The position numbers and the translations under genes were made by a program. The notes beneath the pieces are model-generated. The model made no database searches. It had not been told where the DNA came from and was given only the letters and a program-made list of their open reading frames with translations. 64,000 nucleotides of DNA from Nanobdellota archaeon (GTDB taxonomy: Archaea > Nanobdellota > Nanobdellia > Woesearchaeales > ARS49): contig JBFYLW010000003.1 in assembly GCA_041305185.1 (NCBI GenBank), forward strand, positions 2,692 through 66,691. The letters are read 5' to 3'. Below are positions 55,228 through 63,985 of this stretch, piece by piece (positions within the stretch are counted from its first letter, which is position 1; each line of letters starts with the position of its first letter).

Positions 55228-58200
55228 TTATTTGGTTGCAAGATATTCCTTGAATCCGAAGGTGGGTGAGAATTCAGGGTTTAGTCTTGCTTTCTGGTTG
55301 ACTGCCGCGTGGTGTTCCACGGTATAGTATGCTAGTTTTGGAGATAAAAAGATCGTTTTCAGCCAGGATTTGTGAATTTCAATCTTCAACTGTAGATATT
55401 TCTGGATTTCTCCGTCGGCTTCTGATAAAAGTTGGCTGTGTGCTTTTTCTAAATCAGTGTATGTCTGCGTTCTTGTTTTTTCTACTTTCTCGAAATCAGT
55501 TTTTAGCGCATTGTCTTCCTTCCATCCTGATTTGCTTCCGCAGTCCTTTTCAAGCTTCATATATTTTGTGATGTTTGCTTCAAATTCGTTTATCTTTTGT
55601 TTGAGCGATTTTGCATACTCGTAGCTCGTACTGATTGCAGTGTATTCTGAGCATAATCCATCCAGCGCTGTTCTTCTGTTGTGGAATAAGCTTTCATAGT
55701 TGGAGACTATTTGGTTGCACGTAGTGATTTGTGCTGAAACGATTTTAGCGGATGCAGAATGGTCGATTTTATATCCTGATTTCGAAAGTTTTTCCTGTTC
55801 TTGTACGTGTGTTAATATTGAGTTTGCATATTTTCTTATTTCAATTACTTTCTCTATTCCCTGTTGTGTTTCAGTTTTTATTTCGCTATTTATCCTGCTC
55901 CCTGATATTTTTATTTGTTGATTGGCATTTTGCAATTGCTTGTTTATAATCGATTCTAATGATTTTGCATATGTTTGCAAAGTTTTTGCGATGGTGTGAT
56001 TCACAAGGCCTTCATCTTGTGATACCTGGTCGTATTTGTGTTTTTGTGATAGAACTATATTGGTTGAGTCCATTATGTCGCGTCTATTTGTCTGCAAGGT
56101 ATTTTCGAATGTTCGCGGGTCTTTTTTCCAGTCATCGTAAGCCACTGTAACTTCTGGCATAAGCTTTGTTATCTTTTTTGTTGTTGATACTATGAGCAAT
56201 TCTGCAGAATTAAGCTCCTCTATTTTGTTTCTGAGATAGGTTTCATACCCTTTGATGGCTGATGATATTATTTGTTTGCTTTCTGATATTGGGGATTTGA
56301 GAGCTGCATCCTCTGATAAGTGTGTTGTTAATAGCGTTGATATTTTTTGTTCCAAAGAATCGAGTCTTGAATTCAGAGTTGTCAGTTCGCGTATTGCCTG
56401 TGTGGTGTTTCTGCTGTTTTTGCTTAGTTTCTCTGAAATGTTTTTGTATTCTTGTTGGAGGTTATTGATGAATTTGCCGAGTGTTTCTTTGAATGTGCCC
56501 TCCAGCTTTGTGAGTGTGGTTCTGTTTTTTTCGAGCGCTTGTTCAAGGCTTCTGTCTCTTCTGTAAACTTCGAATTCTGCAGCTTTTTCCCGTGCACTGC
56601 CTATTTTGCTCTTGAACGCCTCAATATTTTCTGTTGAGAATTGATTGCCAAAAAGGTCCTTGATTTCTTCGATGAACGTCTCGTGTTTGCTCGTGTATTT
56701 GTTTAACCGGTCTTCCCTGTCTTTTTTAAGCTGGTGATATGCTTGTTCTTTTTGGCTTATTGTTATTATACGCCCCTTGTCTTCCTGCGTGAAAACATCT
56801 TTCATGCTGAAATAGGTTGATGCATCGTCGATAAACTGCAGTTGTCTTTCGCACTCTTTTATCTCATTCAGTTCATCGACTGTTTCGGTTTTTCTTTCAA
56901 CTATTGTTTTTATGTTGGACAGCATTTTCTTTATTTTTGCTTCCAGGGATTCCTTCATTTCGCCAAGCTTGTTGTTTATTTTTAGGATGAGATGATCGCA
57001 GGTGTTTTTGACTGGCAATATATTGTTGTCTATATGTATCCTGCTGAGATATGAAGAAGACTCGTTTTTTATGGCAGTGATTTCCTTGTGGAATTTGATG
57101 AACTCAGTTGATGTGAGTTCTCCTGAATAGTTTGTGGCGCGGTCGAGCAGGTTTTGGAGCGTTTTGCCTGTTTCTGCCACTTTCTGGACTTTCTCGTCAT
57201 AAGCTCGGATTTTATTTTGCGCGGTTTTTAACGATTTTTCAAAGTGTTCTGTTTTGCACTCGCTTATGCTGGTCAGTGCTTTTGTTTCTTCTGCAACATC
57301 TTTTATTAATTTCTCCAACTGGGTTTTTTCTTCCAGCGACTTGCCCTCTGTTGATTCGATTGCCGTGCATTCTTTTTCCAGTTTGCTCTTGAGAGAGTCT
57401 CGTAGCTTGGTTCGTTTATCCGAAAGCGAATTAGAGATTTCTTTCACTTTTCCTTTGATTTCTTCACGTATGTCGTTTAATTCTTCAAATCCGCTCGCTA
57501 GAACTTCTTTTTCTTTAATATCAATACTTCCTTTATAAGTTTGATATATTCTAGTATATAGTGTTGGATTTCTCTCATCGGTCTGTATTTCCCCGATGTG
57601 TTTTTCCAATTCCAAAATGTCTAATTTATTCTTTGAAAGTACTGCTCTTTCCATGTTGACTTTAGAGGCATACTCGCGTAGCTTTTCGGCCAGGCCGTTT
57701 TTTATTCCGTTTAACTCTGTTATTAGCGCATCATGGTGGAATTGTTCTGCTCTTTTTATGTAGCCGTCTAAGGTGTTATAGTGGGTCTGTGCAAGGTCTT
57801 TCTGTTTCGTGCTGTTTATTCCGTTTTCGTGTTTTTTCCTTATTTTGTCGGATTCGTTTTTTATCTCGCCTGTCTCCTTGTCGAATTTTTGTTCATATTC
57901 TCTTACGATTTCCAGCAGTTTCTTTTTATCTGTGTATTTCTCAGGATTTTCTAGGAAATTCCTGGCGGGCAGTTCTCTCGGGTCGTTTTTGATGAGCGAG
58001 TAGTACGCGTCTGCTATGGTGAGTAATTTCAGTTCAAGCTTGCTGTTTAGTTTTCGTACTTGCGTTAAAATTATGTGATTTGAAAATGAATCAACGTAGC
58101 GCTCCGCAAGAATGGTCAATAGTGGATTTCTTTTTTTGGGTCTCGTTTCTGTTTTGTCCTTTTTTACCAGAACATCTGCGCTTATTTCCAATCCGTGTCT

Positions 58201-58680
58201 CTCGATTACTTCCATCGGGTGTTCATCTTTTCCGTTGATTCGCGTATATTCCTTGCATGCAACAAATAGCATCAGCAGTCTTTCCTGTCCTGCTGGTCTT
58301 TTTGTTTCTTTCAACGTGGAATAATCGAGGAGATATTCATGAAGCAGGAGTTCTTCGATGTTGCCGGGCTTTCCATCTGATTTGTCTATTCTGGCTGTTT
58401 GAGGGATTTTTTGGGCAAGTTTTTCATCGACTGCTTTTCCCGCGTCTGCAAACTCTGCAGGCCCAGTTTCAGTTTTTCTTTTTTTGGCTATTTTCTGCGC
58501 TTCTGCTGAAACCATTTCAGGATAGCTTGTTTCGAAAGATACTGGAGAAAGGAATTTTAAATCTTCAAACAGTCCGCATTGCAGCAAATCGCATGTTTTT
58601 TGAACTAAGGCATTTCTTTCGTCTTGTCCTATGTTGGGTTTATCTTTCAGAAGGTCCTGGAGTTTTTCGAATTGGCTCAT
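55228..58680 (-). CDS. giant (1150 aa) coiled-coil protein, last gene of Ubl/E1/JAB operon
   Basis: Almost entirely K/E/L-rich heptad-like sequence; 4-nt overlap with E1 gene. Confidence 0.5.
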   Translation of the reverse strand: MSQFEKLQDLLKDKPNIGQDERNALVQKTCDLLQCGLFEDLKFLSPVSFETSYPEMVSAEAQKIAKKRKTETGPAEFADAGKAVDEKLAQKIPQTARIDKSDGKPGNIEELLLHEYLLDYSTLKETKRPAGQERLLMLFVACKEYTRINGKDEHPMEVIERHGLEISADVLVKKDKTETRPKKRNPLLTILAERYVDSFSNHIILTQVRKLNSKLELKLLTIADAYYSLIKNDPRELPARNFLENPEKYTDKKKLLEIVREYEQKFDKETGEIKNESDKIRKKHENGINSTKQKDLAQTHYNTLDGYIKRAEQFHHDALITELNGIKNGLAEKLREYASKVNMERAVLSKNKLDILELEKHIGEIQTDERNPTLYTRIYQTYKGSIDIKEKEVLASGFEELNDIREEIKGKVKEISNSLSDKRTKLRDSLKSKLEKECTAIESTEGKSLEEKTQLEKLIKDVAEETKALTSISECKTEHFEKSLKTAQNKIRAYDEKVQKVAETGKTLQNLLDRATNYSGELTSTEFIKFHKEITAIKNESSSYLSRIHIDNNILPVKNTCDHLILKINNKLGEMKESLEAKIKKMLSNIKTIVERKTETVDELNEIKECERQLQFIDDASTYFSMKDVFTQEDKGRIITISQKEQAYHQLKKDREDRLNKYTSKHETFIEEIKDLFGNQFSTENIEAFKSKIGSAREKAAEFEVYRRDRSLEQALEKNRTTLTKLEGTFKETLGKFINNLQQEYKNISEKLSKNSRNTTQAIRELTTLNSRLDSLEQKISTLLTTHLSEDAALKSPISESKQIISSAIKGYETYLRNKIEELNSAELLIVSTTKKITKLMPEVTVAYDDWKKDPRTFENTLQTNRRDIMDSTNIVLSQKHKYDQVSQDEGLVNHTIAKTLQTYAKSLESIINKQLQNANQQIKISGSRINSEIKTETQQGIEKVIEIRKYANSILTHVQEQEKLSKSGYKIDHSASAKIVSAQITTCNQIVSNYESLFHNRRTALDGLCSEYTAISTSYEYAKSLKQKINEFEANITKYMKLEKDCGSKSGWKEDNALKTDFEKVEKTRTQTYTDLEKAHSQLLSEADGEIQKYLQLKIEIHKSWLKTIFLSPKLAYYTVEHHAAVNQKARLNPEFSPTFGFKEYLATK

Positions 58681-63344: not shown

Positions 63345-63779
63345 TTACAGCTTTCTTTCCAGACCGCCTTCTCCTGGTGGGTCTACTATTCTGATTTTGC
63401 ATAATGCGAAACTGTTGCCGGATTGGTCTTTTGTAGTATCCCAATATGCTGAGTCTGCAATTGTGTTTTCTCTCTCGTCAACTAACACGTTTCCAGTGCC
63501 TTCTTCTTTTTTCACGTCCAGCTGTTTTCCGTAGATGTTGACTGAAAAATTTGGCTTGCTGGCTATCAGGTTTTCGACGTCTCTCTTGTAGATTTCTGTC
63601 AGGGCGTCTATCTCGCATTTTTGCAGTACGAATTCGACTGCTCTTTTGACGCTCATTCCGCCTAGTTTGGCTTTTTGGTCTGTGCTGACGAATTTGTAAT
63701 TTATGCAGTTTCCTTCGTCTGCTTTTGCTGCGTAGACTTCTACTACTGCTGGTTGGTCTCCAAAATTCATTTTTGTCAT
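63345..63779 (-). CDS. ubiquitin-like beta-grasp (ThiS/MoaD-like) protein with GG followed by 5-residue tail
   Basis: C-terminus 'FALCKIRIVDPPGEGGLERKL' resembles ThiS/MoaD '..DGDEVAIIPPVSGG'; 4-nt overlap with next gene. Confidence 0.4.
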   Translation of the reverse strand: MTKMNFGDQPAVVEVYAAKADEGNCINYKFVSTDQKAKLGGMSVKRAVEFVLQKCEIDALTEIYKRDVENLIASKPNFSVNIYGKQLDVKKEEGTGNVLVDERENTIADSAYWDTTKDQSGNSFALCKIRIVDPPGEGGLERKL

Positions 63780-63985
63780 TTCTTGTCCTCCTTGCGTTTC
63801 TTGATTAATCCGCCCAGGTTGAATTCCTTGGGCTTTGTTTTATCGGGTGTTTCAGGTGCCGGTGTTTCCTTTTTTTCTCCCAGCAGATTTCTTATTTTGA
63901 ACAGCGTGTTGAATACTGCCTTGAAATGGATGTTGTGCGGATTCATTGAGATTTGTTTTATCGCGGTTGAGCAGTTTGCCAGCAT
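63776..63985 (-). CDS. small basic protein with internal LGG followed by K-rich tail
   Basis: 69 aa; '...KEFNLGGLIKKRKEDKK'; first visible gene of the operon (window ends 15 nt upstream). Confidence 0.25.
   Translation of the reverse strand: MLANCSTAIKQISMNPHNIHFKAVFNTLFKIRNLLGEKKETPAPETPDKTKPKEFNLGGLIKKRKEDKK

Follow-up and report, generated by a model that had tools for sequence, protein, structure and literature searches.

Does the dense run of minus-strand genes that closes a 64,000-nt stretch of DNA from a Nanobdellota archaeon (GCA_041305185.1, contig JBFYLW010000003.1) specify a machinery for tagging proteins with a ubiquitin-like protein (Ubl), and if so, of what kind and in whose service? 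We refer to the whole stretch as the window and use its coordinates throughout, except where a contig name precedes them; the entire operon lies on the minus strand. Our results make it reasonably probable that a seven-gene operon, encoding an AAA+ ATPase, a 492-amino-acid (aa) protein, a Ubl, a cysteine-containing protein (Cys-protein), a JAMM protease, a tandem activating enzyme (E1), and a giant protein, represents a Bil-like, thioester-based system of Ubl conjugation with an AAA+ unfoldase as its native partner. Five of these genes are complete, close-packed open reading frames (ORFs) in 55228-64000, of 1150, 530, 663 or 632 (for two possible starts), 404, and 144 aa, and the features on which the argument draws are the following.

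63776..64000, minus strand: 3' end of the 492-aa gene (last 74 codons and stop), its frame open to the last base of the window
63345..63779, minus strand: the Ubl, a pro-form of 144 aa from the ORF list, with a C terminus of Gly plus tail
63348..63365, minus strand: Gly139 codon (63363-63365) and the codons of the removable tail LERKL, where JAMM cleavage and E1 adenylation are predicted to take place
62094..63308, minus strand: the 404-aa Cys-protein, a new family (25-sequence alignment) and candidate thioester carrier resembling a conjugating enzyme (E2)
62301..62351, minus strand: motif YMHPATRQESNYVWLCI with the invariant Cys335 (62304-62306), from the alignment of the 404-aa family
60199..62097, minus strand: predicted JAMM/MPN+ metalloprotease of 632 aa, from its zinc motif and profile matches, with an ATGA-coupled start
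61804..61845, minus strand: JAMM zinc motif H-G-H-x7-S-x2-D (HGHGKINVFYSDID), from an alignment of six lineages
58677..60269, minus strand: the E1, 530 aa, tandem ThiF, from Pfam ThiF and invariant catalytic residues
58839..58841, minus strand: codon of E1 Cys477, the predicted thioester Cys at the end of the crossover loop, invariant in seven E1s
55228..58680, minus strand: the giant 1150-aa Lys/Glu/Leu-rich protein, coupled to the E1 by ATGA

The E1 matches Pfam ThiF (PF00899) in two stretches (6e-30, 104.5 bits against a cut-off of 28.1), in agreement with the two ThiF domains read in the initial annotation of this DNA, which had been made from the letters and ORFs alone. Its C-terminal half is of the active type (GGGALAN, DFVDFD..HNIARQ, K326, and GCFDN..R), and the adenylation residues as well as Cys477, which closes an invariant QGQSC477 after a 44-aa insertion in the crossover loop, are all invariant in seven homologs, down to 26% identity. 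The N-terminal half carries a degenerate nucleotide loop (GLDHLGTE), is without N..RQ, and finds its best PDB matches, with E values of about 1e-6, in inactive halves of canonical E1s, namely, the N termini of Uba1, SAE1, and APPBP1. On sequence grounds, we predict with high confidence a pseudo-dimeric E1 of the canonical type, in which a single chain carries an inactive adenylation half and, after a linker, an active one; Cys477 is its predicted thioester cysteine.

A pseudo-dimer with an inactive half is a hallmark of canonical eukaryotic E1s that is common to BilD, itself composed of an inactive and an active adenylation domain, while the other known bacterial E1-like proteins are homodimers (PMC10557695); the tandem E1, initially counted as a departure from the Bil type, is thus a feature common to both. 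In the Bil E1, the catalytic Cys is part of a helical CYS domain of ~80 aa, and four Cys residues of the crossover loop and C terminus make up a zinc site (PMC10557695), whereas window-type E1s have neither the zinc site nor the CYS-domain arrangement. No CxxC motif occurs in the sequence of the window E1, the 44-aa insertion standing in place of this zinc site; the E1s of two distant relatives, L009 and P0008, keep a crossover-loop CxxC and a C-terminal CxC, and that of L015 has a single crossover-loop Cys and a C-terminal CxC.

E1-like enzymes, JAMM proteins, and beta-grasp proteins also form trios in sulfur metabolism (Iyer et al. 2006, PMC1779556), and the locus could be a biosynthetic system of the ThiS/MoaD-ThiF/MoeB type with JAMM processing (CysO-Mec+ or siderophore-like), in which the small protein would become a thiocarboxylate and would not be conjugated to proteins. 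The best NCBIfam matches of the active E1 half are in fact ThiF and MoeB models, and the invariant E1 Cys occupies the MoeB/ThiF crossover-loop position. The scores, however, fall far under the curated cut-offs (77 versus 275 bits for ThiF, 48 versus 266 bits for MoeB), neither a rhodanese domain nor MoaE, ThiG, CysM, or a similar partner is found in any locus, and no Mo-cofactor context is present. Moreover, its pseudo-dimeric build with an inactive half is unlike the homodimeric MoeB, Cap2, and relatives (PMC10557695), the conserved Cys-protein and AAA+ unfoldase would be out of place in such a pathway, and the system is far too rare for a cofactor pathway, as its E1 occurs in 2 of 185,579 species genomes, one of which holds only an orphan, truncated copy. 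We regard this alternative as highly improbable.

The 632-aa protein consists of an N-terminal catalytic domain of ~135 aa on a poorly conserved tail of ~500 aa, much as the JAMM/JAB protein with a long tail had been described. An alignment of the N-terminal domain from six lineages shows H85, H87, S95, and D98 without variation, and four of these lineages also keep the upstream Glu (E19 of AEIM). A profile search against PDB sequences returned nothing but JAMM deubiquitinases at E < 0.1, with Rpn11 as the best match (5e-4), followed by PSMD14, an archaeal Rpn11-like protein, and CSN5; weaker matches included archaeal JAMM1 and AMSH among a few unrelated chance matches. These matches appeared only after N-terminal trimming and the addition of lineages, the full-length JAB profile having found none in the PDB. 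Pfam Prok-JAB (PF14464) matches in six of six lineages, with a best E value of 5.8e-6, while the window protein itself scores 12.7 to 15.3 bits, under the curated cut-off of 25. These observations leave us highly confident in the prediction of a JAMM/MPN+ metalloprotease with an intact E…HxH…S..D motif.

For the 144-aa protein, searches of Pfam, NCBIfam, PADLOC, and PDB-sequence profiles gave no sequence match. In its AlphaFold2 (AF2) model (pLDDT 79, pTM 0.75), a beta-hairpin is followed by three helices, a sheet, and a tail, with a beta-beta-(3 helices)-beta5 core, and a Foldseek comparison of the model with the PDB found nothing significant. The C terminus reads P134-x-G136-x-x-G139 and is followed by the 5-residue tail LERKL. 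Gly139 is invariant in all lineages and is followed by 1 to 11 variable residues (LERKL, LEYKL, SA, SS, SI, LEAALR, RYKTD, and LCY), and the residue before it is not conserved (EGG, TQG, or DSG), so that of the "GG + tail" ending first proposed, the last Gly and the short tail are conserved features but the preceding Gly is not. With moderate confidence, the model suggests that the protein has a Ubl (beta-grasp-like) fold, and this topology, together with the C terminus of Gly plus tail, supports the proposal that the small protein is Ubl-like.

Between the Ubl and JAMM genes lies the gene for the 404-aa Cys-protein, helical in its N-terminal half and beta-rich in its C-terminal domain. When 1.84 billion proteins were searched exhaustively with HMMER, 26 cluster representatives of its family were recovered. 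Only E52, Y197, and C335 are invariant in an alignment of 25 sequences, with C276, F273, and P323 conserved at ≥90%, and the family signatures are FPSCKxG (FPSCKIG in the window) and Y-x-H-P-A-x(9-12)-L-C335-I. In this alignment no conserved His follows Cys335, and a conserved His-Pro lies upstream of it. One candidate member, P0035, was rejected, as its 546 aa are eight perfect tandem copies of a 58-aa Cys-protein fragment and almost certainly an assembly artefact.

A Pfam scan of all 25 members found no E2 and no recurrent family, the 404-aa protein has no match in Pfam, NCBIfam, PADLOC, or PHROGs, and a PDB-sequence profile search with 3 or 24 sequences returned nothing. An hhalign comparison with three human E2 sequences aligns its HP with their HPN, its Cys with their catalytic Cys, and the helix that follows with alpha2, in an alignment that is not significant (P 0.067, probability <1%). 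The AF2 model is too weak for use; its order of secondary structure is helix, beta-meander, loop, and two helices. That no sequence or structure method recognizes an E2, that the protein, at 404 aa, exceeds an E2 in size more than twofold, and that two cysteines (C276 and C335) are conserved would all be expected if it were instead the main substrate, a thiol peptidase, or a ligase of the E3-like or transglutaminase-like kind, with the E1 conjugating directly, in a sampylation-like manner, or via another partner. We consider this distinctly unlikely, as the gene stands beside the Ubl-like and JAMM genes in eight of eight lineages and between them in seven, which is the E2 slot of Bil operons, the HP precedes the invariant Cys at an E2-like spacing and in matching register, and the helix/beta-meander/loop/two-helix order of the weak model fits the UBC fold. 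By gene position, motif, and analogy, we assign the 404-aa protein as a candidate E2-like carrier with low to moderate confidence. BilB is an E2 with an E2 fold and a catalytic Cys accompanied by an adjacent downstream His (C138...H151) (PMC10557695), and the protein in the E2 slot here differs from it in being without this Cys...His signature. As an E2, the Cys-protein would be more divergent than any other known; if it is not one, the system would employ a carrier or ligase of a new kind.

How far does the operon extend? The initial annotation counted six minus-strand genes, five of which are as it described them, but the sixth, a 69-aa protein at 63776-63985, is an artefact of the window edge. 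Its frame is open to the window end and matches the last 74 residues of a 492-aa protein (L004:4902-6380) in contig L004 (GCA_964387435.1), the E1 of which is 99% identical to that of the window; the 69-aa frame is therefore the C terminus of a 492-aa gene, and the start of the operon lies outside the window. In L004 and L011, two contigs of the same lineage, the gene order is AAA+ (513 aa)-492 aa-144 aa-404 aa-JAMM-E1-1150 aa, and we infer that the operon likewise extends upstream past the window to genes for the 492-aa protein and a ClpX-like AAA+ protein. This most distinctive partner went unnoticed before because its gene is beyond the window. The 492-aa protein is conserved in L002 (24% identity) and has no match to Pfam, PHROGs, or PDB-sequence profiles.

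The AAA+ protein gives profile matches to ClpX (3.5e-22) and HslU (5e-13) and Pfam matches to AAA (2e-12), AAA_2, and ClpB_D2-small. Its Walker A (GPSSVGKT), pore loop (GYVG), and Walker B (IFDEFDK) motifs are intact, and in place of the ClpX zinc-binding N-domain, which it does not have, are YDFGK repeats. The protein is intact in L004/L011, L002, and L015, and a further copy in L016 is known by its match to the family profile (E 4.5e-42), not by motifs. The conserved gene neighborhood argues, with moderate confidence, that the AAA+ protein is functionally linked to the Ubl system. No gene for a ClpP or HslV protease was seen in the loci. As a separate observation, the N terminus of the AAA+ protein (L004:3359-3620) contains five copies of (R/K/S)-Y-(D/N)-F-(G/S)-K, with two similar copies in the L001 homolog, and this YDFGK-type repeat could be a docking motif.

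These associations were traced through eight lineages of the Cys-protein (the window group, L001, L002, L009, L014, L015, L016, and L017). The JAMM gene adjoins the Cys-protein gene in all eight, and a small Gly-tailed protein is encoded directly upstream of this pair in all eight as well, detectable by hidden Markov model (HMM) in five. The tandem E1 is found in five of the five contigs long enough to show it, and the ClpX-like AAA+ in five of the eight lineages, if the degenerate L001 copy is counted. The order 144 aa-404 aa-JAMM-E1 is seen in the window, L001, L002, L004, and L015; L014, L016, and L017 have the order 144 aa-404 aa-JAMM and end inside the JAMM gene, L009 has the order Ubl-JAMM-Cys-protein-E1, and in L015 the AAA+ gene is downstream of the E1. 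Because the arrangement recurs in independent contigs at 20 to 47% protein identity, it is not due to chance, and our confidence that this conserved synteny, seen as a Ubl-like/Cys-protein/JAMM association, is real and nonrandom is high.

Two of the homologous loci have peculiarities of their own. In L009, two called genes (L009:42-536 and L009:1435-2703) contain an in-frame TGA, from which it follows that the source gene caller used a TGA-recoding table, and the organism may use an alternative genetic code, two cases being too few to decide. In L001, the giant-protein gene is followed by genes of 503, 911 (with a weak FtsK/HerA-like P-loop), 180, 172, and 377 aa (L001:15024-21448), an ECF sigma factor and a PknB-like kinase are encoded directly upstream, and a repressor with HTH and M78-peptidase domains is encoded nearby.

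Within the window, the packing of the genes is consistent with a single operon. Inspection at the base level showed ATGA overlaps, in which start and stop codons overlap, between the 492-aa gene and the Ubl gene, between the 404-aa and JAMM genes, and between the E1 and giant-protein genes; the JAMM and E1 genes overlap by 71 nt, and a 36-nt spacer carrying GGAGG separates the Ubl and 404-aa genes. The JAMM gene most likely starts at the ATG at 62097 (632 aa, ATGA coupled) and not at the TTG at 62190 (663 aa), and the L004 gene call agrees with the former. The E1 start is best placed at 60269 because the N terminus of the E1 is conserved in homologs; public gene calls for this E1 begin at a later Met than the 530-aa ORF and were matched via the homolog P0001. 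Counts of promoter-like sites (21 versus 16.2 ± 3.9 in shuffled sequence) and terminator-like sites (14 versus 12.3 ± 4.3) on both strands of 54000-64000 showed no excess, and none of the 14 terminator-like sites was on the minus strand of the operon.

The last gene of the operon encodes the giant protein, which is composed of 12.4% Lys, 11% Glu, and 10% Leu. Heptad-like segments extend from about residue 200 to 1130, making up a heptad-rich helical rod of ~900 residues, and a conserved head domain occupies residues ~110 to 270 (bases 57871-58353). The heptad scan and the ATGA overlap both accord with the earlier picture of a 1150-aa coiled-coil protein translationally coupled to the E1. In L001, L002, L003, and L010, a homolog is encoded after the E1. 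The protein has no Pfam, PADLOC, or PHROGs match, and its head domain has no match among PDB-sequence profiles. Both the giant and the 492-aa proteins are limited to the window-type clade, and they are perhaps clade-specific accessories that serve as scaffold, sensor, or preferred substrate.

Which known system does this operon resemble most? The bacterial Bil systems of Type II and Type I (BilABCD, alternatively CEHH or 6C) come closest. The gene order Ubl-(E2 slot)-JAB peptidase-E1 is exactly that of Bil operons (Ubl-E2-DUB-E1, DUB being the deubiquitinase), as the initial annotation had suggested, and further likenesses are the E1, in which one chain holds an inactive adenylation domain followed by an active one and no ubiquitin-fold domain, the Ubl with a conserved Gly and short removable tail, and the absence of an encoded E3 (PMC10557695). 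No sequence homology of the operon proteins to the BilA, B, C, and D groups was detectable.

Other systems fit worse, among them Bub, CBASS Cap2, sampylation, and the sulfur-carrier systems. Bub (6E/DUF6527) and CBASS Cap2/Cap3 are likewise sparse operons of E1, E2, and peptidase, and the active E1 half has weak PADLOC E1-E2 matches; however, neither the Bub architecture (Ser/Tyr oxyesters, fused proteins, and a DUF6527 protease) nor that of CBASS, in which Cap2 unites E1 and E2 in one protein and conjugates a cGAS-like enzyme, is present here. Sampylation (SAMP/UbaA/HvJAMM1) and pupylation (Pup/PafA/Dop/Mpa) similarly tie prokaryotic tagging to AAA+ unfoldases and proteolysis, the former with a JAMM enzyme, but the window E1 scores only 22.6 bits against the UbaA model, which has a cut-off of 450. 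Sampylation is not known to need an E2, with UbaA as a homodimer of a single adenylation domain, and Pup is not known as a beta-grasp protein and is attached by a different ligase chemistry. The operons of Caldiarchaeum subterraneum and Asgard archaea also provide an archaeal Ubl that is JAMM processed and E1 activated (PMC5654768, PMC6043591). They have a recognizable ubiquitin, a UBC-family E2, and a RING E3, while the present operon has no RING, and no Pfam model recognizes its Ubl or Cys-protein. The eukaryotic ubiquitin system with the Rpt ring of the 26S proteasome, or with Cdc48/p97, brings together the same kinds of component, namely, a Ubl with an E1 of pseudo-dimeric build and a Cys carrier, a JAMM deubiquitinase of the Rpn11 type, and an AAA+ unfoldase. 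The differences are that the ATPase here belongs to the ClpX/HslU clade rather than the classical Rpt/Cdc48/PAN clade, and that no proteasome, E3, or ubiquitin-receptor genes are present. Any coupling between tagging and unfolding is suggested by the gene neighborhood only.

Gene content, catalytic motifs, conservation, and co-occurrence are directly established here, whereas we infer the biochemistry of each step, the function of the 404-aa protein as an E2, the coupling of tagging to unfolding, and what the system is for. The JAMM protease would trim the 5-residue tail of the 144-aa pro-Ubl and expose Gly139, which the pseudo-dimeric E1 would adenylate before taking up the Ubl as a thioester on Cys477 of the crossover loop. 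These steps are proposed because the catalytic motifs are intact and invariant and because of the analogy with Bil, where DUB processing is required before E1 catalysis (PMC10557695). Gene position and motif suggest that the Ubl would then move to the invariant Cys335 of the 404-aa protein as the E2-like carrier, the long helical N-terminal half of which may select targets, no E3 being encoded, and the Ubl would be joined to lysines of target proteins. The ClpX/HslU-type ATPase may recognize the tagged proteins and then unfold or disassemble them, a step suggested by the conserved neighborhood only, and the JAMM enzyme might be able to recycle the Ubl.

The distribution of the system bears on what it is for. 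The E1 and Ubl families comprise 8 and 4 clusters, respectively, among 5.8 billion proteins, and a scan of viral contigs found the E1 in none of them. The hosts are DPANN archaea and at least one bacterium, with loci ranging from 25 to 65% G+C (GC) content; L001 (65% GC) is bacterial because an ECF sigma factor (2.5e-27) and a PknB-like kinase adjoin it. The DPANN-like background first proposed for the window is that of Woesearchaeota, as the hydrogenase of this archaeon falls into a ≥90%-identity cluster with Candidatus Woesearchaeota proteins, but the bacterial L001 locus shows that small archaeal genomes are not the sole setting of the system. The patchy distribution, divergence, GC range, and bacterial locus indicate that the system is rare, fast evolving, and horizontally mobile across domains. 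An orphan E1 homolog in L007 (L007:4642-5910; also in L008), with 37% identity and without the first ~85 residues of the inactive half, sits among housekeeping genes (a HemN-like radical SAM protein and a GTPase) in a metagenome-assembled genome labeled Methanosarcinales. This copy is probably what is left of the system as it decays and, as an orphan in such surroundings, adds no synteny information.

Rarity, fast divergence, and cross-domain spread suggest, with low confidence, a role in intergenomic conflict or defense, to which the local context lends no support. PADLOC 2.0 gave only generic E1-E2 (Cap2) matches to the ThiF core (E ≥ 1.8e-11) and nothing for the other operon proteins or neighbors. 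Several observations weigh against a conflict-related conjugation and unfolding system: no known defense genes flank the operon (PADLOC on operon proteins and other large window genes), its window-side neighbors are housekeeping genes, and no virus link emerged from the viral-contig scan or PHROGs. In addition, the AAA+ and 492-aa genes are known not from the window itself but from the same-lineage contigs with the 99% identical E1, the L001 AAA+ (L001:5409-6611) is degenerate, having lost the GYVG loop and Walker B, and the 6.7-kb L009 contig has no AAA+ gene.

The same components could alternatively serve proteostasis or remodeling instead of defense, in that the Ubl would mark the cell's own proteins, such as the giant coiled-coil protein or surface and cytoskeletal assemblies, for ClpX-like unfolding, as sampylation and pupylation feed proteasomal ATPases. 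The housekeeping nature of the flanking genes in the window, with no defense island, and the translational coupling of the E1 to a giant protein with 12% lysine are consistent with such a function. However, the distribution is extremely patchy and crosses domains at 25 to 65% GC, gene order is shuffled, accessory genes vary, and the AAA+ has decayed in one lineage, so that an accessory, mobile system fits better than core proteostasis; moreover, no gene for a partner protease (ClpP or HslV) was seen in the loci. On balance, we think this function rather unlikely and favor the accessory Bil-like system coupled to an unfoldase.

Several neighboring genes deserve mention. Divergently oriented upstream of the operon (L011:338-5960; L002:125-3602) are genes of 94, 135, 222 (TPR), 823, 160, and 443 aa. 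Those of 94 and ~222 aa are conserved between two Woesearchaeota lineages, and a gene of ~814 to 823 aa, known by position and size alone, stands at the equivalent position in L011 and L002. Except for the TPR repeats of the 222-aa protein, the products have no Pfam, PHROGs, or PADLOC match, and this divergent cluster may belong to the same system. On the other side, 72 nt downstream of the giant gene and on the same strand, is a gene for a 90-aa, two-transmembrane DUF5676 protein (54883-55155), which has a GGTGAGGTGA site to itself; as this gene accompanies the operon in no lineage but that of the window, it is probably outside the system. Some 20 kb from the operon, a set of unusual large genes at 24138-34489 codes for a multi-HTH protein of 641 aa (weak PADLOC mad1 match), a MORC-like HATPase_c_3 protein of 528 aa, and a protein of 1021 aa whose kinase-like domain is of the APH/TCAD9 type. 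Conflict systems are known to contain TCAD9, a "ternary complex-associated" domain, and this group may be a separate conflict-type cluster. The 64-kb window contains no tRNA gene and no Rfam family at the gathering threshold.

Together, our findings suggest that the operon is a new variant of prokaryotic Ubl conjugation systems, probably coupled to an unfoldase. New relative to Bil are the AAA+ partner, the unrecognizable Cys-protein, and the giant coiled-coil protein, and at least three of the protein families are without annotation, namely, those of the 404-aa Cys-protein, of the 492-aa protein, and of the giant coiled-coil protein, whose head is conserved. That the 144-, 404-, 492-, and 1150-aa proteins have no Pfam, NCBIfam, PADLOC, or PHROGs match fits the suggestion that the system is previously undescribed. 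An AAA+ unfoldase appears in no system of the Bil and Bub papers or of the 2006 survey of prokaryotic ubiquitin-like operons (PMC1779556), and we found no Ubl system with a ClpX-like partner, or from DPANN archaea or Woesearchaeota, of this kind in the literature, with the caveat that coverage was incomplete and an earlier description is possible.

Complete prokaryotic Ubl cascades (Bil, Bub, and CBASS Cap2) have been characterized only recently, and none is known to include an unfoldase. In eukaryotes, the defining use of ubiquitin is delivery to AAA+ machines that work with an Rpn11-type JAMM. It is possible, although we hold the idea as tentative and doubtful, that the operon represents a self-contained prokaryotic "ubiquitin-unfoldase" pathway, with a canonical-type E1, a highly diverged E2-like enzyme, a ClpX-like reader, and an Rpn11-like JAMM recycler, and thus an independent, mobile version of the logic of the eukaryotic proteasome and Cdc48, employed by DPANN archaea and some bacteria, probably in conflict with viruses or between host and symbiont. 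If our interpretation is true, the operon would be a compact, testable model of how tagging became coupled to unfolding, and Bil-like systems would reach into the DPANN archaea, with their episymbiosis and their viruses.

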